This document shows positions 26,294 to 59,039 of a stretch of DNA of 64,000 nucleotides, piece by piece (position 1 is the stretch's first letter; every line of letters begins with the position of its first letter). A program made the translations under genes and the position numbers. The notes under the pieces were generated by a model. The model was not told the DNA's origin. It did not search any database and saw only the letters and a program-made list of their open reading frames with translations. The stretch comes from Euglena gracilis. Its lineage: Eukaryota. The stretch is from contig CP154954.1 of assembly GCA_039621445.1 (NCBI GenBank), positions 13,386,716 to 13,450,715 on the forward strand, written 5' to 3'.

Positions 26294-26330
<37 letters not shown>

Positions 26331-34990: not shown

Positions 34991-35127
34991 CTTGTGTTAT
35001 CGTTGGTGCCGGCCATCGTCATATGGGTGGTGTTCATGGATCTAATGACGTCGTCCGTGGACCTGCTGCGCAGCACCACCCACGACTCGATGGACGTCAT
35101 GGCACAAAATATTCAGCAGTTGCTGAT
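34991..35127 (+). CDS. Adenylate cyclase exon 1 (TM1; true start lies upstream, unresolved)
   Basis: LVLSLVPAIVIWVVFMDLMTSSVDLLRSTTHDSMDVMAQNIQQLL; followed by GTC-CAGGTT, which pairs with AACCTG-TTGGT at 35610-35620. Confidence 0.75.
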
Positions 35128-38100
35128 GTCCAGGTTGAGGTCTTTGCAACTTTTGGTGCATGGCTTGATCCCCCCGCGGGGGGGGGGGGGTTGGTTTGTA
35201 CTCTGGAGCAGAGGTTTACCCCTTTTTTTGGTGTTTAATTTGCCAAATGATGGAGGAAGGGAAGGAAGGGAGGAAGGGAATGAAGTGAATGCCAAAATGT
35301 CATTTTGGAGGAGGGGGGCTTTGTACCTCTTGATAACCAACCACCCAAGTTGCGGTGTTCAAGGGTGAATTTGAATTTGAACCCACAGCAGTGCGGGAAA
35401 AAAAGAACTTCCCCAAATTTTGTCCAACATTGGAGAAAGGGGGTTGAGCGAAAAGCTGGGGAACCCCCAACTCATACATTTACTTCCAACCCCTTTCCCA
35501 CCCCCTCCCCCAATGTATTTCATTCTTGAGGGTTCTGGAGGAATTTGACTGCTTGCAATCCAGATTCTGAAATGGAAATCATTCAAGGAAAAAGACAATT
35601 GGAACCTGAAACCTGTTGGTGTATCAAGCGATTGAAAAGTTTGACACCCACATCACGGAGGGCGAGAGGGAGATGATGGAGTTGGCCTTGATGATCCAGG
35701 GGAGTGGGGTGCTGAGCTTCAGTCGGGCACCTGCTACGCATATTTTTTGGTGCTCTTCTGCCTGATAGCATCAAAATTATATGCATTGTGCTATGCCTGC
35801 ATGTGTTTTTTCTACAATCTGCACACAAAAAAATTTCATGTTTTTTGATTTTTTTTGCAGTGAGGATTTTTGGACAGTTTTGTGGTCCCCACAGGTTCTC
35901 AAAGGACATTTGTGTTTCTTTTGTCAGTGCATTTTATCGACTGCTCATTTCCATGTTTTGTGCCACCACTGTCTGTCAAGGCGTTGGACTCTCCATTGAG
36001 GCCACAGGGGCCTGGCTACGACCTCCACCCCTCCCGCTTCGATATCCCAAAGCAAGGATTGGCCACGTCTGCCCCAAAGACTCTCAATTTTTTGAAATAT
36101 TTTTGAATGGATTCCCCTTTGGCGTTGCTTTTTTTATGCTTGGTGGAATTCTTTTTTTATTTTTGAAACAAATGGTTGTCTCTTTCCATCCCATGAACGA
36201 AACCATGCCCTTATCTGATAAGATCAGATTACGCTTTAAATGGCTCAGAATAAAAAAAATCCCACCTAAATTAATTGGGCAATCAGCAGGGGGGGGGGGG
36301 CGCACGTTTTTTGAGGGTTTTTTTTTGGAATAAAAAAAAACAGGGCCAGTTTCCTCAGGGCTCAGGGCCAGTTTCCCCCCCAGGATCTTGTCCTGGGGGA
36401 TCTTCGGGGAACAATGCTCAAATGCAAAATCCCTAGAAGGAGTCTCAAAAAAGGGAAAAAAAAGGCTCAAACATATAATGATGTTATTTCAAGACTAGGG
36501 GGTCCGGGTGGCAGTACCCCCCCCCCCCCCCCGGTGGTGGGGCCGAAGGCACCCGGAACTCCATGGCGAGTGAGTCCTGGGGGGGGGGGTCCTGTGGTGG
36601 TTCTGTGGGGGTATTGGGTGTTCTTTTTCCCAGAGATTTTTTAATTTTTTTCTGGAAAAACAATGGAAGTTTCTTCTTTTTGGTGCCGATCTTCCCCCAA
36701 CTAAAATTTATTGTCAATTTATTGTCAATTTTTTGCATTTTTTTGGTTAAGAAATTGCACGTGTGAATGTTTTTGTGCAAAATGAAAAATTTGCCCTGAT
36801 GGAGCCAAATTGTTTTGTCCTCCTCAGCAGAAAGTGCACATTCTGAAGGATTCTACATTCAGTTTGCTTTTTTTGGCCTTTTTTTTTCTGTGTTTATGCC
36901 CCCGCCAAGAGAGGCCATTTTTTGGTGCCAGGTGGTCTGACATTGGGGCGGGGGGAGGGGCGACACTGTCCTGTCTGCTGTCTTCTGCCTTTGCCGGGAC
37001 GTCCCCAAATTGAAAAAGGAGAGGGTCAAACGCATGCCTTTAGACACATTTTCCCCGACGTTTTTGGAATCGACGATGCTCCTTTTTTTCTTTGTGCACC
37101 AGCACCTTCGACGTTGGGGGCATGGGTGCCGGCAGCTCCCTTCCACAGCCAACCTTTCACCACAATGCAGGCCCATCCCTACTTCTCGCAGGCAGCCGTG
37201 TTGGGCAGTTATTTTGACCCGACAAACGCTCAGGGGCGACACACCGCATGGCTTAGCAGGCCCTGCTCTCCCAGGGGACCCCATCCAGCCAGTAGCCTTG
37301 ATCCCCAGCCATGGACCTCCCCCCACCAATGAGTGAGTTTGTAAGTCTTGCCGCCCAAAAGGCCATTGAAGCACTGCACATACTTCAACTTGAAAGCGCC
37401 AAAATGGGCAGAAATGAACAAAAATGGGCTCAAAATCGGGCTGCCTTGCCCATTTCCTCGTTTCCCCCCCAGTTTTTCCGTTCCGGCCGCATTCTTGTAT
37501 AATTGGTGCTGATTTTCCCTCTAATTTTTAGGTCCAGTTCGATCCCAGTTCAGGCTGTGGTACGAGGGGTTCAGCTGGTCTTTTTCCAGATCCACCATTG
37601 GGACATGTTTGACTTGTAAGATTTTTTCATCCCATTTTAAAGACAAGAATTATGGGAGATGAAAATTATGGGAAACCGCCTTGATGATTTCCAGATACTT
37701 TTTCCCATAATTTTGTCCACTCAACCTTTCCTAACCCCCCCCCCCCGAATAGAAGCCCCCCCCCCCTGAAAAGTGCCCCCCCCCCCCCCGAATAGAAGAC
37801 CCCCCCCTCGGTTTTCGACCAAAATTCCGAATAGTGCCCCCCTCCGAATAGTAGCCCGCTCCCCGTGGGTTTGGGGGGGGGAGTGGGGGGCGTGGGGGGC
37901 GTGGGGGGAGTGGGGAGTGGGGGGTGTGGGGGTAAATGTCTAGTATGGGCTCCAGTTTTTGCAATAACTTTAAATGAGGGTTGGGTGAGTTTACGTTTAA
38001 TGATCCATCCACAAGAGTAACATTTGCAGCAAATTTGACATGGTTTGGAAAGTAGACCCACAAAGAAATTTCTTCGATAATGCTTGGACCCCCTGATTTT

Positions 38101-39545
38101 CGACCACTTTTCTGAATAGTCCCCCCCCCCCGAATAGAAGCCCCCCCCCCCTCGGTTTTCGACCAACGTTCCGAATAGTAAACCCCCCCTCCCTAATAGA
38201 AGCACGGATGCGCTTATAGCGGACTGCCATTTCTGGCGGCGGGGGGTGCGCTTCTATTTGGACCCTACCTGCGCGATTTTTGTTGCTTTCCTTTAGAAAT
38301 CCCATCAAAATGGGGGGTGCGCTTGTAGTGGACCGCCCTCTTCGACGGTGGGGGGTGCGCTTTTATTTGGACCCTGCGCTTGTAGCGGCCCCGCGCTTCT
38401 ATTAGGGGGGGGGTTAGCCCCCGGGGGCTTCTATTCAGGGCTTTTGGTGCTTTGCTGGAGGAGTATTATTGTCGATTTTTTGGGGGTTATTTTGAAAAAT
38501 CACGATAAACACCACCAGAACTCCATGTTGACCATATTTGGAAATTTGTTTTGCGTTGAAATTTGTGTTTTTTTTAGAAAAGAAAAATGATGTGATGTAA
38601 TTTCATTCAAAATTACACCACATCTGAAAAATTTTCCCTGAAAAATTTGAATTTTCCCACAATATCTTCCTTTAATTTTTTGTCTCCGTAATTTTTTTGT
38701 CCACACTCTAACGGGAGAGGAGAAGGAGAGGAGGTCATTTCCATTGATCCGCTTAACACCCATGTGACCCCTCGGGGGTGGGTCCTCAAGAGTGGGTGGG
38801 TTCGGCTGCTGGACCCCCCCCCCCCCCCGGGCTGGGGGGCAGACTTTGGCCCAGCCTGGCTTTTGGGTGGGGGGGTTGTGGGTAGGGGTGGGTGGGTGGG
38901 TGGGTTTTCGGAAAAAGTGGGTGGGTGGATTTAGGGCCGGGGAAATGTGTGGGACTATTAAGTGAATTTTTGGCCACGTCATGCAGGTGTGAGATGTAGC
39001 AAAATGCACCGAACCAATGCAGACATGCACGATCACCGTCGTTGGACTGCATTGCCACCGTCTTTGGCTTCATTTTAAATTTGACTGTTGTTGCTTCCAG
39101 GAGAATTAACGCTCTTTGAAGTTTTTCTTTTTCCTACTTCAGAAAGGAATGGTCATTTCCAATACTGGGGTGCTAGTGATGTGTGTGGGCATGCAATGGC
39201 TTGCGATGGTTTGTGCTTCAGATTCTCTGCGGGGACGTTGGCAAGAAATGTTTTCGCTTGAAGCGAAGGATCCTTGTGGTTCAAATCTGGTTCCCATGCT
39301 GCCTCTGTCACCACGACCTTCACCCCCATATTTTGGGTGACATGGGTGGCGTTCCTCATTGATGTCCTCAAGCAGAGCTTCGGCACCCGCACGCTGTATG
39401 TCAGCCAACTCGCCATGGCACCGAACGAGAAGGTGACGACGATGGGCTGGGTCCTTCCTTGTGGCTCAGTTTTTTTTTCTTTTGGCTTGTGCTAAAAGTC
39501 ACTGGAATTCACACAAAATACACACATGGAAGACACCAACACACT

Positions 39546-39598
<53 letters not shown>

Positions 39599-42500
39599 TG
39601 TGTGTGTGTGTGTGTGACATGTGTCATGTTGGGTGCCGCAAGTGCATTTTTCTGTACCGGTGTGAATGAAAACACAGATGGACACCCCACCCCAATAAAT
39701 GATGTGTTGTATTTTTGAGTGGACAAATTTCTTTGTCGAAATTCACATCATTTATTCTGCCTGTTCAGGCTGTTGTGAAAGCGTAGAGTATGGGTAGTGA
39801 GTAAGGGTTGCTTGCACATAATCCCTATAGTTCATTTGGGGTCATCAAGAAACCTTGACTCAACTTCTTCAATTTTTCACCTCACCTGAAATTTTCACTC
39901 CCGCCTCCTTTGTGCCAGTTATTGTGAGAATTGCCTGGTGGTGGTGGTGGTGGTGGGGTATGTCTGGAAGGGATTAGTATTGCTTTTCCTCTTTTCAAAC
40001 TGAGAAAGCGCTCGCCTTTTTTTGATACAATCATTATTTGAAGGGAGAAATGACCCACCGAGCTAACATTTCCGCAGTCAACCAGTTGACGGCAAAGCCA
40101 GTGTATCTGCTGCAGAGTCAGACGGCACCTTCCCAAGTTTTCGACAGGCCCCCACCCTGGAAAATGAACGATCTATGAATTCTGAATGGCCTGCAACAGT
40201 GTTTCATTTCATCAAATGCTGAAACCTCCAGGGCAAGGTTTGAGTCGATCGGTTGACAGTAGGGGTGGATTTAGTAAGAGAAATAATAATAATGTTTTTT
40301 TTCTGACTCAGACAGAATTTTTCATACCCCTCCCCCTCCCCCAACGACCACCCTATTTTACTGACCACACCCCAGTTCGGGGTTGCAGGTCAGGGGGTGC
40401 CAACCCCCCCCCCTGGTCGGGGGTTGTTGGCGACCAAGGGAAAATTGGGGTTTTTGGCGCCGGGTCGTACCCCCCCCCCGAGGGTTGCAGTTCAGGGGTG
40501 CGTATGACCCCCCCCACTTATCGGGTGGAACCTCGTCGGTGGACAAGGGGGGCTAGGAGAGTAAATGGCACAAACGTTTTTTTTTTGGATGCGTTGAAGG
40601 ACCATCCAGCCAGCAGCCTTCATCCCCAGCCATAGACCTCCCCCATCAATGAGCTGTTAAGTCCTGCCGCCCGAAGGACCATTGAATGTCAGGGAAGCTC
40701 GTTCAAGTTCGAGCCCATTTTTCGTTCATTTCTGCCCATTTTTCGGCCGCCTCGACCCGAAGAATCTGTGGTGCAGAGCGTTGCTCAGAAAATTTGCCCC
40801 CCCCCCACCCGAGGGGGTCCAGCCAGCCAGCCAGCAGCCTCTACAGCCAGCAGCCTTTTTTCCAGCCCCGGAACCCCCTCCCCCCCATCAACAAGTTATA
40901 TTCATGGACGGTAACAAATTTCTCGATTTCGGGGGTGCCAAAAATGGGCAAAAATGTCAAATATGGGTCGGATTTGGGCTGACCAGGGCGAATTTGGGGT
41001 CAATTCGATTTTTTTTCTGCATAATTGGCAGTTTTTTTTGGACATTTTTGCAATTTCGATTTTTTTTTTGATTCCCAGTCGATCCCCAGATTGGGGCTGG
41101 CTCCACCCCAGGACCCTGTGGGGGGGGGGAGGGGGGTCAGCCATGCAGTTTTTTTTCTCTCCAGCCCGAATTCTCCAGCCTCTTGGAACCTCCTGGGGGG
41201 GGGGGGTCCTTAAGAAACGCCCTTGTTCCCTGTCCTATTTTTTTGCATACATTCTTGTAAACTTGGTGCTGTTTTTTTTTTAATGAAGTCAACCCCCCCC
41301 CCAATATAAAGCCCCCCTCCCCCGGCTTTACATTTGGACAGGATTTCAAGGCCCCCAGGGGGGGCTTTGTATTTGGGGGTGGAAATCAAACTTTTTTTGG
41401 TGGCCTCTATGACCTTCGGCGGCCTCAATTGTGGCCAAATACCACTTTTATGCCAAATTTTTGTTGTGTACCTCCTATTTCCCCCCAAAATGGGCAATTA
41501 TTGTCCAAAATGGAGCATTTTTGGTGAGAAAAGAGTTTTATCCACCCAATAGTTTTCTACTGTTTCCTGAATGACACCATCGGCTGGCTCCACCGGCTTT
41601 ATATTTAGGCGGCAAGACAATCGCGAGATAGTTTGCCTGCCTAATAAAATTTTATCTTGCATCCGCGTGATTCTGTTGGCATAGCCCACCAACTCTCGAT
41701 ATGATGGAGTTCCTCCTCCTTACATGCCAACTTGCCCGGCCTTTGGTCTTTTGCAAATGACCGCCAAAATTGTTAAAATGTTAAAGCCCCCAAAAGGTTG
41801 CCCCCCTGGCCTAACTTTCAATCATGGCCCGGGCCAAGCGCCAGGGGGTAGGTAGGTATATTTCACTGGGGGTAGTGGATTTGTGGGTCTGTGTTAACCC
41901 ACAAATATTTTCCTGACTGTTCCCTTGACAGCAACTGTATAGAAGGCAGAAGACATGCCCGTGCTCTCTGAAGAAAGTCGAGTTGTGCCTCACTTCCAGG
42001 AAGTGGAAAACTTGCATGAACAATTCAGACACGCCACTTTCTGAATATGATTTGCACCATAAAATAGGCAGCCAGCCATAATTCCTCAGACATTGCATTA
42101 CCTCAACAAACCCACCTTCATTTTGAGGTTTACACACCTTTCTAAACTGTGCATGGCCACTCAACACTGTTGGCAAGGGAGACTGTGGGAAGGTCCTGTC
42201 TGGGTTCAGGTCCATCAACTGCCAAACCAATGAAAGCTCGGGGAAAGACAATGAATGGCAGTGCAACGACATGGTTCAGGAAGAGGGGCATGCAATGAGG
42301 AAGAGGGGCGTGCAAGGGTAGCATGAAGAGGCGATTGGAGGGTTACACGTGGTTGCCACAAGTGTTCCATATGGGACTCAAGAAGATCCCTGTAATGATG
42401 CGTGATTTCGGTAATGCTGCAGAAGAGCCGCCCTCGGTCACCAGAACAACTTTGGGCTAGTTTTCCTGTGAATGTTTTTGGTGGCATTTTTTTTGAGTTT

Positions 42501-44922
42501 AATTTTTACTTTTATTCAATTTATTTCAATTGTAATTTTGATTTTCTGGCATCCCCCCTGGTTTTCCATGGCGCAGGCCTCCCCCCAATCTGGCGAAGTG
42601 GGACGACGGCTGGCTGGGCTCCATGATGTTCAACCGCTACACGGGGCAGGTGGAGCTGTCCATCCGGCAGAGCGCAGGGACTCTCTGGCGGCCAGCCGGA
42701 TGCCCCCTCCCCACCGGCTCATTGGGCTGGCAGGCCATTTGCTGAAAGGGATCCAGAAACATGGTTTTGATGATGCTCAAAGTTTCAAGGTTCTGAACAT
42801 CTGTGTAAAAGGGAAGGTCCAGACCATCAGGGTTCCGTTTTTTTCCCTTGGCTTTTTCAAGCCTTGTGTACCAGGCCAAATTGCTTGCCAGAATTGCTTG
42901 AACAGGTGTTCGAGCAATTCTGAACTGGGTTCAGATGAACAGAACGGGATTTCTGGAACCATCAGATTGGGGGGTGGTGTCAAGCAGCCACAGCATTTTC
43001 CCAACCGACACCAATTGTTGCAGCCCGTGGACCCCGGAATTGGCTTTTCATGGGCAGTGTAAGCGAAGTCCCCAGCAAGCGAATCTCTGGCCCCACCTCG
43101 CTGCCCAGAACGGGACGTGGGTCCAGCTGTACATCAGTATGGGGGCATCGACCATCAGCGACGAGCTGCGGAGCCAGCTGGAGGGGTTCCCGGATGTTCA
43201 AGTGCCACCCAAAACTGCTGTGAGTTGGTTTGTCCTGCAGTTTTCTGTGCATTTGTTGTGCAGACACTTGTTCGATGGATGGATGGTTGGGAATGATAAT
43301 TGTGTGATGACTGTGTCCGACATTTTTTCTTAAATTGATGAACCTTCTATGTTTTGTGTTTCTTTGAGCTTTAAGGTTGTCCCCCTGACGGACAAATGTT
43401 ATATATTTTTTGTGCATCTCACCGAAAGATAGCACTTTTGCAAAGTTGTGTATTATTGCCACATCAAACACACAGCCTCAGTTCTCATTATCTGATGCAT
43501 TAAATCATATTGATGTGTGGCTGCAGTTTACAATAGCTTATTGCTTCTCATGGTCAGAAATCACTTTCTGTTTTCGAATTGGTGATGCAGGCTGGGTGCG
43601 CTTGTAAGAGACCGGCTGGTGCTCTTCTTCCGCCAGCCCCACGGTTATATGATAGCACCCAGTGGTACTCTGACCCTTCCTTTATCAGTTTATCCCTGTT
43701 TATCCCAGAACTGTGCAAATTATTCACAAAATTCTGAAATTGCAGTTTAATTGGGTTTGTTTGTTTTGTGTATGTTTTATGTGTGTTTGTCTTCTTCACT
43801 CTGAACCTACAACGTTTTTAATTGCATTTCCTTTCACCTCTTCATTTCTCACCTTTCCCTCAACGTTCCATCTTCGATGGCCCCACAACCCCAAACCCAA
43901 TTCGTCCCCCAGAGTCGTTCCATGCCCCAGGGTTAGCTTACAAAAAGGGTGTCATGGGTTTAAGCGAGGAGCCCCCTTTGTAGAGGGTGAGGGTCCCTCC
44001 CTCCTGGGTGGGGGGTGGGTTCGGACCCCCCCCCCCCCGACTTGCGAAGGGGGAGTCTGGACCGACCAGGGGACCCGACGATCCGCAATGGTCAATTTTT
44101 TTTTGCCTCCAACAGTTAACACCAAAATTTTTAACAATTTTGACAATTTCAACAAGTTTTTGTCCAGAAAGTGCCAAAATTGCATTTTGGGTCGATTTGG
44201 GAGGTAAAAAAAAACTTTGGCTTCATTTTGGCCAAGCCGCTGTTTCGGTTTTCTGAACCCCCCCCTCCCACCAAACCCTGTCTGCCCTTGCTTCCGCATT
44301 CCTGCGGTGGCCGACTACCCACCTCGGCACACCGCTGTCCTCGGCCTCGCTTCCGCATTCCTGCGGTGGCCGACGACCCACCGCGGCACACCGCTGTCCG
44401 CGGCCTCGCACGGGAAGTACTTCAGCCACAGCGACGTGGACCGACGCTACATCAACCCGCTGGTGAACCCCACCAACGTCAGCGCGTACCGCCTCTGGTC
44501 CAGGCTGGGTCTTGAATCCGCAGCTTGTGAGCAGCATCTCTTGCATTTGCCATCGAAGGCGGTTGAAATTCAGCCTGACCTTGACATGCCTTCAGAGCAA
44601 CGACGCACTCATCTTTCAGGCCTGCCAACAACTGTATGGCACTTACCAGTCCGGGGAGGTCCTTTCTAACTGAAGGGACAGAACAGGAGACAGTGTATTG
44701 AACAGTTGTTTACAGGTGCTGGTTTGGGCTGGCCGAGTTTTGGGTTTGACGATGGGTATCGTTTGTCATCTTTTTGCACGGCGACACTTTGAGACACACC
44801 AAAGGCCCTTTTAAAACCAGAGGGACTTGTGGTGCCAATGACCACTTTAAAACACCTCTACAGGTTTGGTTTTGCCATATACATACATACATACATACAT
44901 ACATACAGACAGACAGGCAGGC

Positions 44923-44959
<37 letters not shown>

Positions 44960-47900
44960 TACATACATAATGTATCATAAGGCATTATGTCCGTTTCCTC
45001 CAGTGAACCTCCTGAAGTGGCTCTTTGCCAAATCTCTGGGAAGTTGCCATTTGAAGGTCTGAGTTTGGGCCTGTTGACAGGTTCCCTCTGTTGTGGCTGA
45101 CTGAGCAAACGCCACCACGAAGTGTCTTGATGTGGTGGAATGATGCGCAAATCAAGCGGATCTGACGTGACAGTTGCCAACCGCTGACCATGGCAGGAGG
45201 GAAATCACAAACCTCAAAACATTTTATTTTTATTTAAATAGATTTTTTACCATATACAATAAATTTTGCTAACTGTAATATAATTATCATAAATATACAT
45301 AATTTTTTAAATATATAATAAAATTTCTGCACACAAGTTTTCGTCGTGATGCCTCCTGCATGGTTTTTGGATGGACATGAGAAGAAGAAGCCGCGCTGTG
45401 GGAACCGGATGGGGCCCTCCCTGGCCCCCAGTCGTGGACCGCCATCCCTGCGATGAACCAGGAGATGGTGCTGAGCGCCCAGCGGTACTGGGTGGCCACT
45501 GGCTACAGCACCGGAGCTCGGGGGCGGCGCTGGAGGAGAGACCGGATTGCTTGTTGGTTTTTTTTGCCTGTGAATGGTTTTGAAAGCTGGTGTGATGGCT
45601 GCCCACGTGGATGTTGTCTGCTGGGCTTTTCTCCACCAATGGACTTATCACAAAGGTATCCAATGAATAATAATTTGAAGAATAAGTTGTGTCGTATGCA
45701 GTGGTCATTGGTCATCATTTGGCACTTTTGAGAAACGCTATTTAGCCTGTTGTAGGCGTCTGGCGCCTGTTGTGTGTGTGTTTTACGAGGGGCCCTGCTC
45801 TTTCCCACCACCCCCTCTGTGCCTCCGACCTGCCGAATGGCACCCAAGTGTTAATCCTCCAAAATACACTGCCAGCGAAGGGGAATGGTGGATTTGCCAC
45901 GCAGCCACATCGCCTGGCCACGAACAGTGCGGACCATCCCCGGCCCGGCCCCAGCCTGCTGTGTACGGTGCTAATGCTGAAGAACCGGGCGGCGGTGATG
46001 GGCAGCATCGACGCCAGCAACGCGCATGTGGACCAGCGGGTGGCCGACAAGAAGGGGGTCACGGCCGGGGTTGGCTGCTCTCGCTGTTGAGGCACGGCCC
46101 ATCGTCAACATTTAACTGATGAAAATGTTGATACATTATGATGATGTGCAGATCTATGCATGTACGTATGTGGCCAATGAGCACCGAATGAGCACCACTG
46201 AACGCCAGCTGTTTTTTTTTTTTATGAAGGGGTTCCCTCCGACATCGGTGTGTCTCGCACATGCACACATACAATGAGTGTATCATCATTGTGTGTTTTA
46301 TTATCACATATTTGTCTGTTTGCAAAGGCTGTCCCCATGTCACATTTTATGCAACGATCATACCTTGCACAGTTGCTTGTCTTCATGCCAAACTTCCGGT
46401 GAAGGAACCTCCACATCTACGCCCCGCCTGTGTTCGTCATACTGGGGGTGGTCAGCGCCATCGCCGTCCTGCTGCCGCTGAGCGTGGGCTTGTGGATGGC
46501 CTCACGGCTCTACACCCTTGCAAGAGGGGTCAGGGCCCTGCCCCTGTCTGGGCCTGTGTGGCTCTCCTCCTCTCAGCAATTCGGGGCACGAGCGACCAAA
46601 GAAAAAGAACAACACATAATTAAATGCAACATCGAGGGTCTGCTCTTTGTCCCCCTGAGTCAGATCCAGGGTGCCAGGGAGCGTTAGTTTCATGCGGGGA
46701 GAGCCCCCCCCCCCCCTCTGGGCTGGGGGTTCTTGAGGGGGGTCAGACCCCCAAGAACCGAGAAATTTTCTTCCCCTTCAAAGCACCGGGGAAAGGATTT
46801 TCACGTATTGCTGATTTTTCGAAATGAACCCGAAAACACGATTTTTGGCTTTTTGAGCCCCCTCCCCCAATTGTCCCGGCGCTTCGTGGCTTTTTGCTTT
46901 TCGCAGGAGGGGGGCCTGACCCCCCCTCCACCCTCATTTGGTGCCTTGGACAAGACTGTGTGGGAATCCCTGGGACCCTTTGGGTGTTGCGGGGCCACCC
47001 GGGCATTGGTTTTTTAAGGCAAAATTTTTATGGCATTATAGGGCATTCTTTAAGGCTTTTTGAGGCTTTTTAAGGCACTATTCTCCAGGGGAGTCCAAGG
47101 GCTGTCCGGGCATCAGAAAAGTTTTTTTTTTTGATTTTGCATGTGGTCCAATTAATTTTTTTTTTTGCATTTTGGTTAATAAACAACGTTTGGGCAATGC
47201 CAAAATCATTTTTCTTTCCAGAGCTGACCTGCGTTTGCTGAGGTTTTTTGGCTTTTTCTTTGCTCGGTCGGAGAATTTTCTGCCAGCCCGAATTTGTTGA
47301 ATTTTTTGGCATTTTGAGGCATTTTAGCCAAAAAAAATTCAAGGCTCATTTTCAGGCATTTAAGGTTTTTTAAAAAAATGCCTTGCAAATAAAAAAAATG
47401 CCACCCCATCTCATATCTCCAAGGCGCTGATTTCTCTGTGCCTTCGGGGCCAAAGAAGTTTTTCTTGCAAACTGCCAGGGTGGGAAGGGGGTAGATCCCC
47501 CCATCAGACCTTCTTGTACAGCCCTGTCCAAAGCTTTCTTTCTTGGGTGTGCTCTTTTTCTTGCAAAGTCAAAAGTGTCCAGATCATCAGACTTCTTCCA
47601 GTTTGATTTCTGTTTTCATTCCATGATTTTCATCAACTTGAAATCAGACCGCTGCGGACAAGGCCCTGCCTCCGATGGACCGCATCGCCCAGCTGCAGTT
47701 CACCACCACAGCCACGAAGCCCACTGTGTTCCGGGAACTTCACCGCTTCCAGACCTCCTTCACCCAGATGGAGCGCGGCCTGCAGGGCAGGCTTCTTTTC
47801 AATGAAAAAAAAGTGGTCACCTCCCCTCCCAGGTGGGTGATACCAGAAGAAAACTGTTGTGGGGAGATTCTGGACCAAGTTTTGCCCAGGATTTTTTTAC

Positions 47901-50900
47901 GGCAGATTCAAGAAAAGCCCAATTTCCTCCAGTGAACCTGCGAAATTTTCTTTGGCATTTTGCACGGTTCCTTGGAATGTTCCAAGTCACCTGTTCAAAA
48001 GGTGTATTGATCATTCAGCATGTGATTTTTTAACGTTCAAATCCAAACTTTTTGAATTTTGGATTTGGAGAAACCAATTTTTGGGTTTGGTGTGGAATTT
48101 CCCTGAAGAATGGCTTTGTGAGATTTTCTTCATCCAGAAATTTCCTGGCCGTTTTAAGGGGGCGTCCAGGATTTTCCCCGCATTTTGAGGATTCCCCACA
48201 AAAAATTTTCCATCTGCAATTGTTGCTGATCAGATCCCGCCATTTCAAGGACATTTTGTCCCTCTCCCTTGGATGTCACGTTGGGTCAACTGACTTTTTC
48301 TGTTGGAAAGTCCACTGGGAGGCCTCCACGGCAAGTTGTTACTCACCCTCCCTTCCTAAAAATGAAATGAACCCCCTTATAGCACCAAAAAACCCTGCCT
48401 CCTGGGGGGTCAAAATACCCCCCCCCCCACTCCGCCTGTCCATACTGGGGGGCTGGGCGACCGTTGCCAATTGTCCAACGAACAAGGGGCGTCCAGACTG
48501 TGTAGATTGTCTCCTTTCACAGCAAATGGATGATTATTTCCTCGTCCAATGACCGGGCTTGTCCAAGAAATCCCCCCCTGGTCAGATGCGACCTGTGATG
48601 TTTGTCCCTAAGTAATGGAGGAATTGTGGTTTAATTTCGCTTTTTTTTGTATTTGCAAGTTTCAGAGAAGCTTTTTTTTTGCAGCCTGTTGGAAAAACCA
48701 TAAACTGGCTGAAATGCCAAAATGACCCCCCCCAAAAAATGGCCAATGCCCCCGCAATGGCTCCCAAAATGATTCAAATTGGTGTACCCCCTGTCTGCTG
48801 ACCACCCCGTCAGGCTTTTTGTCAGGCTGTATGACATCGAAATCTCATTCCTGCCTTCCTGCTGATGGAAGATGTCACAGGGTTGAATAATACATTTCAG
48901 GGGAACGTGGCAGATGACACCCAATCATATGTCTATCCAGCAAAAGATCATGTCAGGGAAAGGTCCCAATGGGGATAAATCCCCTATACATCGACACCTC
49001 CTGGTCGGAGGATGAAGGTTGCAGGTGGTTTTGAATATTGGGTTTTTTTTTGGCACCTAACCCCCCCCCAAAATAAGACCCGGGTCTTATTTTTGGGTCC
49101 GTTGCTGGAAACCTCCAGGGGGGGGGTCTTATTTTTGGGGGGGTTCTTATTTTTGGATTTTTTCTTGACCGACCCGGGACGAAAAAAACATCATTTTTCA
49201 GGTTCCCAAAAACACTAAAAATTTTCCTTCGGCGCTTCGCGCCATGTGTAAATTTGTGTAAGTGGACATTTAGCATGTTTTTTGCACTTCAAGAATCTGA
49301 AATTTTTTGAAATTTCATCATTTTTGTGTGTGAAATTTGGGTTTTTGGCAATTTCTCAGGGAAAATTTTCACCGTCCCCGGCGCTTCGCGCCGTCAGGGG
49401 GGGGGGGTCTTATTTTTGGGGGGGGTCTTATTTTGGGGGGGGGTCTTATTTTTGGGGGGGGGGTTTAGTCGTGCAACCACTCCCTGGTCGGGGGTTGTTG
49501 GAACCTGGTCAATGGGGAGGGGGCTGGTAAAGTGAGGTTGCGACAAACAGCCGAAAGTTGCTCAAATTTGGCCAAAAAATGACCAATAATAGTCGAAATG
49601 GCCAAAAAAATGGCCGACAGTGGCCAAAAATGGCCAGAAGTGGTCAAAGGATGCCAATTGTGCAAAAAAAAAAGGGGCTAAAAACAGCCAAAATGGTCTT
49701 GATTCCCTATTTGTGGCCAACTTTTTGCCAACATGGGGTTCCCCTATTGTCTAACAACCCCCTCCACCCCCTGGTTGGAGACAAACGTTGGCTGTTTTAG
49801 CACCCCCCCCCCAGTCGGAGACGATCATTTGGTGTCATTGAATCATGAAATGGGGGGAGGTTGCGAACCCCATGCTTAATGAACGTCTAATGCTTAATGC
49901 TTAATGAACCCCATACTTAATGAACTGTCCGGACCAATCCCTCGGGGGGGGGGGGTTGGTCAGACTCAGCTTGGACCGCGTGCATAACAGCCGAAGACCC
50001 CCTCCTCCAGGGGGTTGTGGAAAAGAAGGCTGCTGTGGGCGTTTGGGAAGTTCGTGCCCCAGGCGGTGGTGAAGGTGCTGGGCAGCCCCGGCCCGTGATG
50101 TGCCAAATTGGGGCATTGCGTCTTGCACAAACCCTGATGGATCCTGAATGGCATCTGGGAAATGAGGTTTCTCTCTGGAATCCCTTTCTGGAGTGACAAA
50201 AGGGACCAGCGGAAAAAACAGCCAAATCCACCTGAGATGCCAGATTTGTCCCAGTCTCAGGATGTGACACGTCACGTGACACCCCCAAATGACATGGGGC
50301 CAACACCTGCAACCAAAAAGAAAACCTTGAAAAATTGGCTGCTTGAGCACAAGGAGAAAAACCCAGGCATCACAGCTGGGCGTCTCCGATTGCAATGCCA
50401 AGGCACTGGGGCATTTCAAACCAACCACAGCAACCGGTGACCCTTGACATGTACATCGAATGTGCGGCTTCTTTGTCGAGTCACCTCTTTTGACCGGCGG
50501 CTGATTCTGATTGCTGGCCAAATGAAAGCCAACGATGAGATGCACCCCAAGCAGGCCGCTGTTCATTGTTCCTGAGGTCTAATCTGCAATCCTAAAGGTT
50601 TCGTCTCTCATCCGGAAACCGAAGATATGGGCCGTCAGTGGTAATCCGTTTAATCATAAATTTGCGCCAAAGTGAGCCCGCTGAACTCCTGATCTGCTGA
50701 ACTTCCCCGTTTTTTTTTCATCGGCCCCCTGGCTGTGGGTTGCAGATGCCTTTGGCGTCACTGTTGAGCTGTTTGGAATCAGTTCCACCTGTGGTTGCAG
50801 CCTGCCAGAGGGGACATGGGATGGTTTTCCTGAGGTCGCAACCAAACACGTGAGTTTAAAGCCCCACCACCATGGAGATGGTGGTGGGGCAATCAGTTGC

Positions 50901-52678
50901 CTGCCACTGAAACGCTGACCATCATGTTTGCGGACATTGAGGGCTTCTCCACCATCTGTGAGAATGAGACCCCCGCCGCGCTGGTCGCCGTGTGCACGGA
51001 GTACTTCGAGGCCATGTGCAGCGCACCGAGTCTCCTGCAGACAAACCCCAGAACACCCCCCCCCCCCAACGACAGGAAGTTTTGGAAACTTTCAAACACA
51101 CACTAAGCGAAGGAAAATATGGCTCAAATCACCGAAGGTTTTCAGGAACTGGGAAATGATGTGTCTTTATGTCGGTCCTTCCTCAATGAAGAATCTTGAA
51201 AGTGGGGTATGTTCCCACCCATATGTGTTTCATTTCGGCTCTTTGGCTTTTTTGCCATTTTTCTCACATTTGGCTTGCAAAACGGCTTTTTCGCCATTTT
51301 CTCAATGGCGAAACGGCTTTTTTGCTGTTTTGCCAACGGCTAAACGGCTTTTTCGCCGTTTTGCCAACGGCGAAACGAAAAGCCATTTTGAAACAAGTCG
51401 GCTTCTGATGGGTGGGAACATACCCTCTAAAATAAGGAACGGTCTTGTTCCCAGGGAAGGTCTCAACCCCAGGGGGATGTGGGTCGTGAGAGAGCAACCC
51501 CCCCCCCCTTCGATGCGGAAGGTTCTAGGAGCCCAAAAATGGCCCAAGCTGGGACTCAAATTCCCCCCCTGGTTGTGTCCCTGCTATGAGCTAGCACCCC
51601 ACACAGCGATGTTCTAAGTTTGTTGACCTGGGGGGGGGCGCCCCCCTCCTGCTGGGGTTTAGTCGAGGGGGTATCCTCCTCTAGCGGTTCTCCTCTAATT
51701 TCGGTCTGAAAGCTTTTTGAAAACTTTTTCGACCAAATTTGACCCCCGAGCTCTCCCCCCCCCCCCGTGGGGGCCCTCTGGGTGGGTGGGTGGGTGCCGA
51801 CCTCCCCCTCCAGATCCTGAAGAACCTCTGAAAACCTTCTAGCACGAGGCACAATCTCCCCGGGGCTTGTTAAAAGGAGCCTGCTGGAACGTCCTCTGTA
51901 TGGGTCTCGGACCCCAATATTGTGGAACGAAATGGCACCATCGACAAGTTCATCGGTGACTGCATTGAAAGCCCCACGGTCGGCGGTTCGGTCAACCCCC
52001 CCCCTTCGATCCAACTGCTCCGCTTTTGACTACTCGGTTGGTGGTGTGACTCCGAGGCAAGTGGGGAAAAGGCACTTCCTGACAGTGTTTGAACATTATC
52101 GTCCAGATTTCCTTTTTTTAATAAACAATCTAATGTAATGGATATGTGCATGTATTTAGGAACATATACACACCGCATATGTATATATATATAAAATATG
52201 CACATGTACATAGGTATATGTGCATGTGTGTGTCCATATGTATTGGCAGGTGCACCTTTTGATTCCCTCCCCCTTGGGGGTATCAAAGTGCACACTTGGT
52301 TGGCCACGGATGCCCTGGGGATAATGAGGGTTAGGCTAATTATCGGCCTAATTATAGGTTAGTTTGGGCATAATGCAAGGCCTATTTTTTTTTTTAGGAT
52401 TTCGGCCTAACTGTAGCCTAAAACCCTAACCCTAACCACTCCCAAACCCCAACCCCAATTGCTTTTTATGGGATAATCTGGAACTCGCTTCCTCACATCC
52501 AAAATTATCAAATTTCCACCGTCGGAAGATCGAAGTTGGTGGAGAAAACGGCCAAAATCAAGGGGCCGGTCCCACTTGTATGACGCGGGAGGGTAAAAAA
52601 ACCCTCACCTCATACTGGTGGGACCCCCCACCAGTCGGGCCCAACTAATATGGGGTCGCCATGCATGCATGCATGTGA

Positions 52679-52709
<31 letters not shown>

Positions 52710-55700
52710 TGTATGTATGTATGTATGTATGTATGTATGTATGTATGTATGTATGTATGTATGTATGTATGTATGTATGTATGTATGTATGTATGTATGT
52801 ATGTATCTATGTATGAATGAATGTATGCATGTGTGTATATGTGTGTATGCATATCCTCACGACTGTTTGAACAAGGTTGTGCACGTGTCCTCGCTTTACA
52901 TAAATATAAATAATAATACTGTACATACTTATGTATTTGTACCAGATTCTTCTCCTCATAAACCACCCAGTCCACCACCTGTTTCTGTCGATTCCCACCC
53001 GTGGGGCTGCGCCATGGCGATGTGGAACGCGCCGGAGAGGCTGCCCGGACACGAGAGGGACGCTGTGGCCGCGTCGCTGGCGATGCAGGACGCCCAGGGC
53101 TCAGACATTACCAAGCCCCCCCCTCCCCCGGAAAAGGTCTCGTTTTGGGGACTGTCACCGGCTGACGGGTTATGTTGGACAGATGTTGCCACTAGAGGTC
53201 CTCCTGCCAAGCTGTTCTCTCGGCTTTTATGACAACGTCTGATGGGGGGGGGGTTGGCATGCATCCTTCAGTTAGACCCCACGCTCCATACATGGCAAGA
53301 TTCATGTTATTTTTTTGGTCTGTGATCCCATTGAAATTTCTTTTCTGCACCATCTGGGCGGAAATCATTTCTCTGTTGGTGAGCGAACACAAAAGAAGTA
53401 AGTTTGCACCCAGAGTTAAGCTCACCATCCAGTTTGGTTTGCACCAGAATTCCGATCCCAAATTCTCGATGGAAGTCATCATCAGGGATAGGACCAAAAA
53501 ATTATGGGTTCGAAATTCTCGAACTTTTCGTACCTTTTTTCTCAACACCGCCTCTGCCCAGTCCCATCCCCTGATTCTGAAGGGAAACTCCCCCAGATTT
53601 AAGCACCCGTTGAATAAATTTGGGTTTCAGCCGATCTGCCCAAGGGGTGGCCTAAATCTGGTGGCTGCTTCCATTTTGGGTTGAATGGATAGTCAATGGA
53701 TAGTCAATTTCAATGGTTCTTGGCAAGATATGAACCGACACCGTCCAAATCCGAAATTGGATGTGTGGCAGCCAAAACCATCCCCCCAACGGAGATGGCA
53801 TTATTGGCAGAGGGTCCCAAAAAAGAAACACACACACATGTGGAAGCTCTTGGTCCTCTTCTAAGATCAGGTCCTGCCGCTTGCGTCGTGGACCTCCACC
53901 AGTTATGGCGGTCCCGGGGGCTGCCCAGACCTCTCCTTCGCGCATGTCGGCAAAAAATGCAATTTTTTCCAAAAATATTTGCAAATTGGGGGCCTTGACC
54001 CGCACTAAGGAGAGGCCTGGGACTGCCAGTGCTGAAGTTCCGCGCGGGCATCCACACCGGCCAATGTCTCGTGGGCAACTTCGGCCAGTGCCGAGTCCAC
54101 GTATCTGTGGATACCTTTTTTTGCCCCTTCCCGGATCTCATAACATGCTTCCCTCAACAGGAGTCTGCAAATCCAGGTCAGAGGTCATTTTGGTGGTTGC
54201 TGACCCTTCCCCAGGTTGTTTCTGGTTTTCTCCCACATAACAGGTTTTCCTTGAACATTGAGAAGGCACCACAGACGGAAATTTTTCCTTCAAACATTGG
54301 TTTTTCTCAAGTTTTGATTTTTTCTGGCTCCAAATCCACCCTCTTTTCTTCATGGTTGCGAAAACACCCGGGGGGGGGTTCAATTTTTTCCCTTGAAACA
54401 CAAAAAGAGAATCCGGAGAATGAGGAACGCCCTGGAATGTTCAGAACAAAAGTTATGTTTATGACCACAGATAATGCACAAGGCGCAGCTAGAATGACGC
54501 TATCCACAGTGAATTTCGAAGCTTTGAAGGACATTTAGAAGAATTTTTCCAGAGCTCCTCATCAAATATGCCAAATTCTGAAGTTGGGAAGGTTTTTGCG
54601 GGGGCATCTGATTCGCACCTCATTGCAGAAGCCCAGGTCATGTTGCTGGCTGCAGGGGGGTGCATTTCGCATTTTTTCCTGCATTTTTTGGGGCTTTTTT
54701 TGCGCATTTCCCCCCAAATTTTCCACAAATGGGCACTTTTTTTTATTTTTTTCGACACAATTTTTTTTTGCTTTTTTTTGCCATTTTTTCGTGATTTCCC
54801 CAATTTTTCGAATCTTTGACCATTTTTGCAATTCTTTGCATTTTCTTGAGATTTTCGAATTTTTTTGAACCTGACTTTTGCTGCCGACTGGCGGGGGGGG
54901 GGGGACCTTGCCGACGTCGAAGAAAATGTGCAAAAAGAATGCACAAAAATGTGGCACTTTGTGTGCAAAACCTAGAGAAAAGGCACAAACATCAAGAAAT
55001 GTGAAAAATACCCAAAAGCGTGCAAAAATGGCACCAAATTGACAGAAATGATATTGGAATTGTGATTGACCGCCCCACCCCAACCCCCCAAATACTCCCC
55101 TCTTGCTTCAGAAGACCTCTGGCCAGGCAGGTTGGCAAGTGGAATGGGAGGAGTTATCGAAAAGAGTTGTCATCTGACAATCACAGGCAAACAAAAAAAC
55201 AAAGAGCCCCATTGTCTAGGCCCCTGGCATTTCAGTCAATTCAACAACTGTAGTAGTATCCTGCTCCGCTTGCTCTCAGGAACCCCATTTTCCTGAGCAA
55301 CCTTCCCAGGCAAAGAAGTTGTATTTCTGTCCGATATTCTGGTGCGTGCTTCTCGTCCTCTTCCCCCCATTCTCCGTTGTCCCGGGGAGGTGGGCTCGGT
55401 CGCTGGGGGCTGGCTGCAGCTACCGTGTCAGCTACACCTGCCTGGGGGACGGGGTGGGCCAGCCCCCTCCCGATTGGCATGCTGCCCATGTGGACATTGG
55501 GCCGTTGCAGTCGTTGGTCTAGTTTGCCCTTCCCCCTGGGATCTGCAGAAGCACACTCCCCGAACGACTGTTTTGCATGTTGTTGTTTTTAATGTTTCAC
55601 CCCTGTTTCAGCAGAATTGGGGGTTTGGGGGGTTTGTCTTATTTTGAAAAATTTGGCCATACTCCCCCCTGCCCCAGGGTTGGGATCCCTGAAACCTCAT

Positions 55701-56582
55701 GGGTGGTGGGAGGGTGTGTCGATCTCCTCATCCTGGTCGGGGGGGGGGGCATCACCCCTTCACCCCTTCCTTCACCCCTTCCCATCTCACAAATGCCGAT
55801 TTTGAGGCACCATTGGCACCGAAGGAATTTTGTTTGACTGCCATGGTCAGTTGGAGTCCTCCCGACCATTCTCCCCACCCCCAGGTCCCACACCCAGGGG
55901 CTGCGCACCAGGCCTTCTGAACACTGCCCCATTTTGAGTGCCTCCAAATGATTCACCAGGGGGTTGAGGTTCTTCAAGTCGTCACGGGGTGTTGACCATG
56001 GTATTGCATGCAAACCATGATCTGCAATTCAGCTCACTCACAGGGTTTCTTTGAGGGTTTTTTTTTGTGGGTGTTCGAAAATGTATTTTGTTTATTCCCA
56101 CCGTTTCTTCATTTAGCCCGTGTGACCCCACCTCTGAGGGGGTTTGAGAGTGGGTGGGTTGGGGTTGAGCTGCTGGACCCCGCCCCACTCCCTGGGGGCG
56201 GGATGCACTTTGAGTCAGCCCAACTGGGCCGGGGCTGGGTTGGCAATACATATTTCGAGGGGTTTTGGCAGATTTGGCATGGTTTTGGGCTGGATGAGTG
56301 GGTGGGTGCCCCCCCCCCCTGCAGGGGGGGAGGGGGAGGTCCGGCAACAGGTGCCCACCCCCGCCCAGGGGGCCACTGAGTGAATCCATGTTCCTACCAA
56401 GAAGCTTCTCTTGTGATGGATGGGGGGCGGGAGGGGCGCTGCCGGCCCAACCTGTCGGCGCGGCTGGAGCCGCTCAACAAGAAGTTCGGGACGTTCCTCT
56501 GCGTGTCCCACGCCACGTTCGAGGCCTGCCGGGGGGACTTCCACTTCGGCGGCTGGCGAAGGTGACGGTGCCCGGCAACGCC
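34991..56582 (+). CDS. Receptor-type class III adenylate cyclase (2 TM, large extracellular domain, HAMP-like linker, cyclase domain); 24 exons joined across 23 nonconventional introns; 5' and 3' ends incomplete
   Basis: Exons joined at stem-defined junctions give one reading frame, apart from a 1-nt slip in exon 24. It contains TIMFADIEGFS, TIDKFIGDCIMAMWNAP, FRAGIHTGQCLVGNFG and SYTCLGDGVNLSARLE (class III cyclase motifs), two hydrophobic helices (exons 1 and 14) and a HAMP-like segment. Exons: 34991-35127, 35621-35720, 36020-36066, 37140-37227, 39313-39444, 40062-40153, 42583-42671, 43095-43195, 43610-43656, 44402-44497, 44583-44647, 45430-45515, 45953-46062, 46432-46527, 47674-47784, 50038-50079, 50509-50548, 50909-51022, 51916-51966, 53014-53091, 53882-53922, 54025-54082, 55412-55456, 56449-~56582. 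Confidence 0.9.
35621..35720 (+). CDS. Adenylate cyclase exon 2
   Basis: YQAIEKFDTHITEGEREMMELALMIQGSGVLSF; next intron AGT-CGGGCACCTG...CAGGGGCCTG-GCTAC, in frame. Confidence 0.75.
36020..36066 (+). CDS. Adenylate cyclase exon 3
   Basis: DLHPSRFDIPKQGLA; the 3' boundary rests on a short stem only (GTC-TGCC...GGCA-GCTCC). Confidence 0.6.
37140..37227 (+). CDS. Adenylate cyclase exon 4
   Basis: FHSQPFTTMQAHPYFSQAAVLGSYFDPTN; next intron GCT-CAGGGGC...GCCTCTG-TCACC. Confidence 0.7.
37730..38440. mobile_element. Intronic MITE-like element (CCGAATAGAAGCCCC repeats) in intron 4
   Basis: Repeated CGAATAGAAG motifs with an inverted CTTCTATT end; related copy at ~4020-4245. Confidence 0.5.
39313..39444 (+). 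CDS. Adenylate cyclase exon 5
   Basis: TTFTPIFWVTWVAFLIDVLKQSFGTRTLYVSQLAMAPNEKVTTM; next intron stem TGGGTC/GACCCA (3' boundary +/-1). Confidence 0.75.
39545..39616. repeat. (GA)n(GT)n microsatellite in intron 5
   Basis: Directly visible. Confidence 0.95.
40062..40153 (+). CDS. Adenylate cyclase exon 6 (3' boundary approximate)
   Basis: ANISAVNQLTAKPVYLLQSQTAPSQVFDRP; open frame directly after the partner stem of intron 5. Confidence 0.6.
42583..42671 (+). CDS. Adenylate cyclase exon 7 (5' boundary approximate, within a C run)
   Basis: PNLAKWDDGWLGSMMFNRYTGQVELSIRQ, GC3-rich codons; next intron GCG-CAGGGACTC...GAATCTCTG-GCCCC. Confidence 0.7.
43095..43195 (+). CDS. Adenylate cyclase exon 8
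   Basis: LAAQNGTWVQLYISMGASTISDELRSQLEGFPD; next intron GTT-CAAGTGCCACCCA...TGGGTGCGCTTG-TAAGA. Confidence 0.8.
43610..43656 (+). CDS. Adenylate cyclase exon 9
   Basis: DRLVLFFRQPHGYMI; next intron ACC-CAGTGGT...ACCGCTG-TCCGC. Confidence 0.8.
44402..44497 (+). CDS. Adenylate cyclase exon 10
   Basis: ASHGKYFSHSDVDRRYINPLVNPTNVSAYRL; next intron (85 nt) GTC-CAGGCTG...CAGCCTG-ACCTT. Confidence 0.8.
44583..44647 (+). CDS. Adenylate cyclase exon 11
   Basis: TCLQSNDALIFQACQQLYGTY; next intron AGT-CCGGGGAGG...CCTCCCTGG-CCCCC. Confidence 0.8.
44877..44968. repeat. (TACA)n(CAGA)n microsatellite in intron 11 (copy at ~58953-59049)
   Basis: Directly visible. Confidence 0.95.
45430..45515 (+). CDS. 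Adenylate cyclase exon 12
   Basis: SWTAIPAMNQEMVLSAQRYWVATGYSTG; an alternative stem register is possible at the 3' boundary. Confidence 0.75.
45953..46062 (+). CDS. Adenylate cyclase exon 13
   Basis: SLLCTVLMLKNRAAVMGSIDASNAHVDQRVADKKGV; next intron GGC-CGGGG...CCCCG-CCTGT. Confidence 0.8.
46432..46527 (+). CDS. Adenylate cyclase exon 14 (TM2, start of HAMP-like linker)
   Basis: FVILGVVSAIAVLLPLSVGLWMASRLYTLAR; next intron GGT-CAGGGCC...GGCCCTG-CCTCC. Confidence 0.85.
47674..47784 (+). CDS. Adenylate cyclase exon 15 (HAMP-like)
   Basis: MDRIAQLQFTTTATKPTVFRELHRFQTSFTQMERGL; next intron GGG-CAGGCTTCTTTT...AAAAGAAGGCTG-CTGTG. Confidence 0.85.
49056..49468. mobile_element. Intronic MITE (AATAAGACCC family) in intron 15
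   Basis: CTAACCCCCCCCCAAAATAAGACCC inverted to GGGTCTTATTTTTGGGGGGGGGGTTTAG; copy at ~63140-63630. Confidence 0.6.
50038..50079 (+). CDS. Adenylate cyclase exon 16
   Basis: AFGKFVPQAVVKV, resembling the F-x-x-[YF]-V-P linker upstream of class III cyclases; next intron GGG-CAGCCCCGG...CCGGCGGCTG-ATTCT. Confidence 0.85.
50509..50548 (+). CDS. Adenylate cyclase exon 17
   Basis: IAGQMKANDEMHP; next intron AAG-CAGGC...GCCTG-CCACT. Confidence 0.8.
50909..51022 (+). CDS. Adenylate cyclase exon 18 (first metal-binding Asp)
   Basis: ETLTIMFADIEGFSTICENETPAALVAVCTEYFEAMCS; next intron GCA-CCGAG...CTCGG-ACCCC. Confidence 0.92.
51916..51966 (+). CDS. Adenylate cyclase exon 19 (substrate Lys, second metal Asp)
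   Basis: NIVERNGTIDKFIGDCI; next intron GAA-AGCCCCACGG...CCGTGGGGCT-GCGCC (perfect 10-bp stem). Confidence 0.92.
52680..52830. repeat. (TATG)n microsatellite in intron 19
   Basis: Directly visible. Confidence 0.95.
53014..53091 (+). CDS. Adenylate cyclase exon 20
   Basis: MAMWNAPERLPGHERDAVAASLAMQD; next intron GCC-CAGGGCT...GGTCCTG-CCGCT. Confidence 0.9.
53882..53922 (+). CDS. Adenylate cyclase exon 21
   Basis: CVVDLHQLWRSRG; next intron (102 nt) GCC-CAGACCTCTCCTT...AAGGAGAGGCCTG-GGACT. Confidence 0.85.
54025..54082 (+). CDS. Adenylate cyclase exon 22
   Basis: PVLKFRAGIHTGQCLVGNF; next intron GGC-CAGTGCCGAGTCCAC...GTGGGCTCGGTCGCTG-GGGGCT. Confidence 0.9.
55412..55456 (+). CDS. Adenylate cyclase exon 23 (substrate-specifying Thr)
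   Basis: GCSYRVSYTCLGDGV; next intron GGC-CAGCCCCCTCCCG...CGGGAGGGGCGCTG (boundary +/-1). Confidence 0.9.
56449..56582 (+). CDS. Adenylate cyclase exon 24 (transition-state Asn/Arg); apparent 1-nt frameshift near 56547
   Basis: NLSARLEPLNKKFGTFLCVSHATFEACRGDFHF, then RLAKVTVPG in another frame; followed by GCC-CAGGG, a probable next intron start. Confidence 0.85.

Positions 56583-58998: not shown

Positions 58999-59039
<41 letters not shown>

Follow-up and report, generated by a model that had tools for sequence, protein, structure and literature searches.

A short nonconventional intron in a Euglena gracilis adenylate cyclase gene and its possible origin from a terminal-inverted-repeat element with an 8-bp target site duplication

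A class III adenylate cyclase gene and its intron 22

A 64,000-nucleotide stretch of nuclear DNA from the Euglena gracilis genome (GenBank assembly GCA_039621445.1, contig CP154954.1, forward-strand positions 13,386,716 to 13,450,715; hereafter the window, numbered from its first letter) carries a class III (NCIII) adenylate cyclase gene of 25 exons and 24 introns, of which the short intron 22 is the subject of this work (Table 1). The counterpart of the gene is P0001 (eukprot EG_transcript_6004), a transcript-derived E. gracilis protein of 656 aa; the EG_transcript_N naming is in use in PMC6366073. Twenty-five exact peptide blocks on the plus strand account for all residues of P0001 except 584-586, where the single residue difference between the two is found (V in the window, M in P0001). 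The translation of one 42-aa exon (50897-51022) retrieved 29 class III cyclase proteins, most of them from the EukProt E. gracilis transcriptome set. Introns were called by enumerating, for each adjacent pair of blocks, every donor/acceptor pair that reproduces the P0001 peptide, and the borders of intron 21 were placed by eye owing to the V/M difference. GT/GC-AG borders were a protein-compatible option for 0 of the 24 introns of the gene, and all 24 are nonconventional. Conventional introns make up 28% in E. agilis (PMC12501133), and a gene with 24 introns and no conventional one would be notable if the conventional fraction of E. gracilis resembles this figure.

Table 1 Features of the cyclase gene, of intron 22 and of the transposon-like elements in the window
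Feature	Position	Strand	Remarks
Class III (NCIII) adenylate cyclase gene, 25 exons and 24 introns	34036..56523	+	Match to P0001
Exon 22 (C V V D L H Q L W R S R G L-)	53882..53922	+	Exact to P0001 residues 587-598, plus CV(V/M)
Intron 22 of 24, nonconventional, 102 nt	53923..54024	+	GCC + CAG-stem ... stem-CTG + GGACT; absent from P0001
Left 8-mer GGGCTGCC	53918..53925	+	5 exon nt + 3 intron nt; putative left target site duplication (TSD)
Left arm CAGACCTCTCCTT	53926..53938	+	Like a terminal inverted repeat (TIR); 5' half of splicing stem
Right arm AAGGAGAGGCCTG	54007..54019	+	TIR-like; 3' half of stem
Right 8-mer GGACTGCC	54020..54027	+	5 intron nt + 3 exon nt; putative right TSD
Exon 23 (PVLKFRAGIHTGQCLVGNF)	54025..54082	+	Exact to P0001
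CAG-ended TIR element, CAGGC(T)n...(A)nGCCTG	6420..7391		972 bp; subterminal repeats; perfect 8-bp TSD ctcaccac
CAGGGTTGGGCAAT family element	17156..17888		Perfect 7-bp TSD catggca
MITE-like element (MITE: miniature inverted-repeat transposable element), CATAGTGG...CCACTATG	20401..20554		154 bp; perfect 8-bp TSD cgggcagc
TAGGGTTG... TIR element	23698..26610		Perfect 8-bp TSD ctcccact; two elements nested inside
Nested TIR element, CAGGGTTGCATATAGG (CAGGGTTG ends)	23914..25864		7-bp TSD; inside 23698-26610
Nested TIR element, CAGGGTTGGGCAAT... (CAGGGTTG ends)	23977..24681		7-bp TSD; inside 23698-26610
CAAGGTTGGG element	32622..33894		1273 bp; TIR CAAGGTTGGGTTTTGT 14/14; perfect 7-bp TSD ccctcgc

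An original prediction, made from the sequence alone, had described intron 22 as a 13-bp inverted repeat with one mismatch, flanked by 8-mers identical at 7 of 8 positions, such that removal of 3 nt from the left copy and 5 nt from the right deletes exactly one 8-mer and restores the target. This anatomy was confirmed throughout. Of 13 positions, 12 are complementary between the arms, which end in CAG...CTG and form, together with the interior, a core of 94 bp (53926-54019) that the 8-mers GGGCTGCC and GGACTGCC adjoin directly. The sole mismatch between the 8-mers lies at 53920 (G/A), which is either the third base of a Gly codon or its intronic twin. Excision of the intron joins GGGCT to GCC, which is the left 8-mer, and keeps the reading frame; both junctions read CT|GC and a G opens the downstream exon. 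In a repeat search the inverted repeat lengthened to 25 nt at 80% identity (53924-53948 / 53997-54021), and the predicted RNA fold pairs both ends of the intron with a minimum free energy of -44.3 kcal/mol. The interior of 68 nt is 56% A+T, compared with about 48% G+C for the window, and an A+T-rich interior is a weak criterion for a MITE.

P0001 was used to assess whether these 102 nt are spliced. The protein reads ...LHQLWRSRGL|PVLKFRAGIHTG straight across the site, exact to the window on both sides, and holds ...LHQLWRSRGLPVLKFRAGIHTG... over the junction. Since it is continuous here, the 102 nt must be absent from the mRNA and constitute a real intron. Eleven cut positions fit P0001, six of which (last exon base 53920-53925, the cut at 53923-54024 among them) are nucleotide-equivalent because CTGCC is repeated; none of the 11 provides GT/GC...AG borders. 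Judged by this comparison, 53923-54024 is a functional nonconventional intron of the cyclase gene. RNA reads were also aligned over 52860-64000, and three RNA runs support neighbouring junctions: 13 reads from 3 runs span 54082>55412 at the 3' side of exon 23, and 13 and 15 reads span 55455>56448 and 55456>56449, respectively. More than half of the aligned reads are only 90-95% alike and thus come from paralogs of the large cyclase family. What points, indirectly, to the splicing of intron 22 is the transcript-derived protein, and not reads over its junction.

Two further observations concern the 3' part of the gene. Contigs of run X18, which comes from a relative and is presumed to be DNA, contain the joins 53033>55412 and 54088>55412, which skip 2.4 and 1.3 kb and have short sides of 22-28 nt; they may be processed copies, reflect a differing gene structure in the relative, or be spurious. 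At 56545-56565, following ...DFHF, the window reads GGWRR-stop where about 10 paralogous transcripts read RRLAKVTVPGK in the -1 frame. This suggests a 1-nt deletion near 56547, for which either a pseudogene allele or an assembly error may be responsible. P0001 itself ends at ...SHATFE, just upstream of this frame problem.

The architecture of intron 22 agrees with the published splicing code of euglenid nonconventional introns. Their consensus pairs CAG at +4..+6 with CTG at -8..-6 (PMC11282704), and experiments in E. agilis and E. gracilis defined the stem and the 3- and 5-nt spacers as functional splicing requirements, in which the length of the 3-nt donor spacer is fixed, that of the 5-nt acceptor spacer may change by +1 and, only poorly, by -1, and a purine is favoured at the exon start (PMC12501133). 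Intron 22 has CAG, CTG, stem and purine in these places. It is accordingly a typical member of this class, with no essential difference from the introns described previously (Milanowski et al. 2014, PMC3935182; 2016, PMC4770533; PMC12501133), sharing with them non-GT/AG borders, the CAG/CTG pair within an extended stem, the 3- and 5-nt spacers, pyrimidine-purine (Y|R) junctions, the purine exon start and borders made slidable by direct repeats. It is unusual only in its shortness, its near-perfect arm (12/13, exceeding the contiguous helices of 3-7 bp in most other introns of the gene) and flanks that are 7/8 identical in full register.

Flank identity and TIR elements in the window

Since the 3- and 5-nt spacers define an 8-mer at either end of every intron, flank identity could be assessed for the whole gene. 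The 8-mers were set by the canonical 3/5 geometry, chosen through stem pairing and not through flank identity, and as a control each left 8-mer was compared with the right 8-mers of the other introns, which preserves position-specific composition including the Y|R bias. Across all 24 introns, 71 of 192 positions (37%) matched in register versus 57.9 expected (p=0.018). A larger share was found for the 19 introns with a good stem (60/152, 39%, versus 45.9, p=0.008), and these still exceeded expectation after removal of intron 22 (18 introns, 53/144 versus 42.6, p=0.034). In 15 of the 24 introns, the helix itself leaves 8 intron nt outside, and these matched at 47 of 120 positions versus 36.9 (p=0.033). 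The earlier manual tally of 64/160 (40%), judged mildly above chance, thus held up in kind, the 5/8 matches it gave for the introns at 35128, 44648 and 47785 were each reproduced, and the Y|R bias to which it had partly been ascribed is real, with 18, 23, 21 and 21 of 24 introns conforming at the four junction positions.

The excess is located where a duplication would place it. The two junction positions were at expectation (19/48 versus 19.1), and the six non-junction positions carried the excess (52/144 versus 38.8, p=0.005). When the right 8-mer was slid from -12 to +12 nt, the true register ranked top of 25 with 71 matches (mean 52, standard deviation 7, maximum of the others 65), and observed minus expected matches came to about +13 over the 8 positions inside the register and about -2 over 25 positions outside. 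A match of at least 7/8 occurred in 1 of 552 non-cognate pairs, all from this one gene, so that its chance is about 0.2% per intron. Overall, a weak but correctly placed signal of flank identity is present, to which intron 22 is a clear outlier, and it lends modest support to a TSD-like origin of the flanks.

The window was further searched for TIR elements, which were kept only if they had both inverted ends and a perfect TSD; looser motif scans and scans with 10-mer seeds yielded mostly noise. Among inverted-repeat pairs found with 8-nt exact seeds, perfect flanks of 7 bp numbered 6 and those of 8 bp numbered 3, where offset controls gave 0.5 and 0.75, respectively. Seven elements with perfect TSDs resulted: the TSD is 7 bp long in four, which have CAGGG/CAAGG ends, and 8 bp long in the other three. 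Elements with CAGGG, CAAGG and TAGGG ends are therefore present as originally predicted, whereas the accompanying caveat that CAG-ended elements have only 7-bp TSDs had to be given up, as the CAG-ended element at 6420-7391 has a perfect TSD of 8 bp. Position 6 of this TSD is a C, which was unfavourable in the published assay (PMC12501133). By the 3/5 rule, if an exon held a CAG...CTG element with an 8-bp TSD, its removal would be exact and would restore the target.

Within 23698-26610, three elements are nested: TAGGGTTG (8-bp TSD) contains CAGGGTTGC (7 bp), which contains CAGGGTTGG (7 bp). This triple nesting indicates repeated activity of related families with two TSD lengths. The 5' 170 nt of the element at 17156-17888 are 95% identical to 23977-24147, and approximately 140 bp separate the element at 32622-33894 from the first coding exon downstream of it (34036).

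hAT elements such as Ac/Ds make 8-bp TSDs and have CAGGG/TAGGG termini. Intron 22 would share with them a putative 8-bp duplication and short TIRs starting YAG, and the TAGGGTTG and CAGGGTTG elements of the window have ends that resemble the Ac termini. Unlike in hAT elements, the CAGGG/CAAGG elements of the window have 7-bp TSDs, and the arm of intron 22 starts with CAGAC. A Pfam scan of 7 long open reading frames, which is not an exhaustive six-frame search, returned 0 hits to any family, and no hAT transposase was found among them. Giroux et al. are said to have described Ds as a de novo intron in maize in 1994. Neither a Pfam match nor a homolog among longer proteins was found for an open frame of 366 aa (30189-31289, minus strand), which could be an orphan gene or a decayed element reading frame.

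Origin of intron 22

Following these observations, we propose that intron 22 began as a non-autonomous TIR element of 94 bp, a MITE from a possibly hAT-like family with 8-bp TSDs, that inserted into the exon at GGGCTGCC. In the transcript, as shown here or expected from the published splicing code, the CAG...CTG-capped inverted repeat folds into a hairpin that joins both junctions, and the euglenid stem-guided pathway removes the intron. Its cuts lie 3 nt upstream of CAG and, at the other end, 5 nt downstream of CTG; the next exon opens with a purine (G). The machinery would in this way take out the stem-bounded core plus 3+5 = 8 flanking nt, i.e., the element and exactly one TSD copy, and the insertion would thus have been spliced precisely from the start. 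One TSD copy would later have changed at a neutral site (G/A, at the Gly third position or its intronic twin). We regard an origin of intron 22 from the insertion of a TIR element (MITE) with an 8-bp TSD as plausible, though not proven, and as the explanation towards which the evidence leans slightly. More tentative, and in our view rather doubtful, is the wider proposal that the 3/5 cutting rule is matched to the 8-bp TSD of a CAG...CTG-ended (hAT-like) family, such that elements with a purine at TSD position 6 would be 'born spliceable'.

A MITE-like origin of euglenid nonconventional introns is already published in outline. It was proposed in 2013/14 (PMC3935182) and restated in 2024 (PMC11282704) and 2025 (PMC12501133), and the proposal is the same as ours in that TIRs and TSD-like junction repeats are taken as signs that a MITE-like insertion makes the intron. 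The 2024 review termed the CAG/CTG stems TIRs and the junction repeats 'TSD-like' (PMC11282704), and as of 2013 transposable elements were described as still unidentified in euglenids (PMC3935182). The passages that set out the hypothesis do not equate 3+5 with the TSD length, name no superfamily and show no actual element. In our literature search, no paper turned up that connects Euglena introns with hAT or with a TSD of 8 bp, with the reservation that the E. agilis supplements (SI Fig. S3, sliding distances) may bear on it, and the arithmetic of 3+5 = one 8-bp TSD may be unpublished. What is added here is a test of the 8-nt register and the presence of CAG.../TAG...-ended elements with 7- and 8-bp TSDs in the same 64 kb.

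Introners of other protists offer a parallel, in that a DNA transposon enters an exon and is then cut out of the RNA along with one TSD copy, so that the message is restored. Huff et al. reportedly described such introners in Micromonas and Aureococcus in 2016. Those of other protists occur in many near-identical copies and are mostly spliceosomal, whereas intron 22 is present once in the window and belongs to a stem-guided pathway. The transposon-derived introns of Amoebophrya carry TIRs and TSDs of 3-5 nt (PMC11282704).

Several results weigh against a transposon origin of intron 22. No second copy of its core or arms was found in the 64 kb, where only chance matches of at most 15 nt occurred. 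The commonest TIR family of the window makes 7-bp TSDs (4 elements), 0 of the 24 introns have 7 nt outside the helix, and the CAGAC start of the arm is unlike the YARGGTTG ends of the window's elements. Because splicing requires a stem, the inverted repeat is not by itself evidence of TIRs; this stem moreover pairs CC with GG beyond CAG/CTG, 2 bp into the putative TSD, and its fold energy is unexceptional (z -1.7, with 12 of 200 shuffles folding equally well). The family-wise chance of a 7/8 match for the best of 24 introns is about 4-7%. With one gene as the source of all 24 introns, the sample is small and tied to local composition, and without intron 22 the flank excess is marginal across the gene (64/184 versus 54.9, p=0.068) and weaker still among introns with 8 helix-defined nt (40/112 versus 33.6, p=0.13). 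The MITE-to-intron route suggested originally is therefore upheld in part. The anatomy, the 3+5 = 8 arithmetic, an actual CAG...CTG element with an 8-bp TSD and a modest excess of identity speak for it, and the single core copy, the 7-bp TSDs of the commonest family, the lack of any intron with a matching 7-nt geometry and its prior publication in outline count against it or its novelty.

Copy number was also approached outside and within the gene. A metagenome scan with a pattern requiring both arms of intron 22 gave 0 matches, and self-BLAST of the window revealed no family-level similarity among the 24 introns, only internal dispersed repeats. In a relative (organism B), contigs showed no elevated depth over the right half of intron 22 (4.4); this hints, weakly at most, against a high copy number there.

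Alternatively, intron 22 could be an ordinary nonconventional intron with no transposon history, its stem kept by selection for splicing and its 7/8 flanks due to chance, the odds of which would be raised by the G+C richness of the flanks, the Y|R consensus and a favoured context for insertion or cutting. We consider this possible, if on the doubtful side. The stem and the 3/5 spacers are functionally required in any case (PMC12501133), the strong junction consensus (18-23 of 24) lifts the expected identity to 30% (57.9/192), intron 22 was picked as the best of about 20, no other copy of its core lies in the window, and neither p-value obtained without it (0.068 and 0.13) is significant at 0.05. 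Chance does not readily account, however, for a match reached by 1 of 552 non-cognate pairs, for an arm longer than the 3-7 bp helices of most other introns, or for what remains when intron 22 is left out, namely an excess at the non-junction positions (47/138 versus 36.8, p=0.02) and a true register that still ranks first of 25 shifts, if narrowly (64 versus a maximum of 63).

Short direct repeats could also be left by another insertion route, e.g., repair of a staggered double-strand break in which filler DNA is used, or re-insertion of an excised circular intron RNA after reverse transcription, with the stem acquired later or already carried. Junction direct repeats accompany 84.4% of E. 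agilis introns, conventional ones included (PMC12501133), and are thus not specific to TIR-bearing introns; nonconventional introns leave as circles (PMC11282704), and 17 of the 23 scored introns of the cyclase gene are slidable by 1-6 nt. Such routes do not predict an exact 8-nt repeat abutting the inverted repeat on both sides, and a re-inserted circle would bring the 3+5 spacer nt but no target duplication. We hold this explanation to be improbable. It is very improbable indeed that the 102 nt are not an intron at all but an artefact of the assembly, or an insertion confined to a non-expressed allele or to a pseudogene copy. The 1-nt frame problem near 56547 relative to the paralogs and a 97.5% identical duplicate segment behind an N gap (see below) would fit this, as would the RNA data, in which most reads are 90-95% alike and come from paralogs and the intron 22 joint is not among the 15 joints listed (58 further joints exist), a point that also weighs against the proposed origin. 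Conversely, P0001 is exact over 25 exon blocks with one residue different and does not contain the 102 nt, and the neighbouring junctions are found in RNA from three runs.

At stake are where euglenid nonconventional introns come from and what kind of machinery splices them; since 2014 the MITE idea has been restated, but no concrete element or quantitative test has accompanied it. If the wider proposal on the 3/5 rule is true, intron 22 would be a young example still showing its TSD, the nonconventional splicing machinery would in effect be an RNA-level transposon-excision system, and it would be explained why nonconventional introns became co-dominant in Euglena genomes. Reading the spacers as one 8-bp TSD leads to predictions that can be checked on the 649,158 introns of E. 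agilis and on E. gracilis assemblies: a plateau of identity exactly 8 nt wide that abuts CAG/CTG and is stronger in lineage-specific introns, and intron families with intergenic copies carrying 8-bp TSDs. The window offers both an intron that is a candidate for being young and actual TIR/TSD elements of the type called for; should the predictions fail, the TSD reading of the junction repeats can be dropped.

Duplicated and repetitive segments of the window

A 6.7-kb segment with exons 10-16 is present twice, at 43212-49822 and 57277-64000, with 97.5% identity (38 mismatches and small indels). The second copy starts 5 nt after a gap of 13 N (57260-57272), and the duplicate represents a tandem copy of very recent date or else a duplication due to a haplotig or to scaffolding. 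Between the two copies no intron presence/absence difference was found, only small and simple-repeat indels; intron 22 lies outside the duplicate. In the second copy of intron 15 (copy B), two donors 51 nt apart (60564 and 60615) are joined to the acceptor 61758 by 13 RNA reads each, which may represent alternative nonconventional 5' sites or reads from paralogs. Long microsatellites of the (ATAC/ATGT)n type are common to 980-1600, 10300-10700 and 52660-52850.

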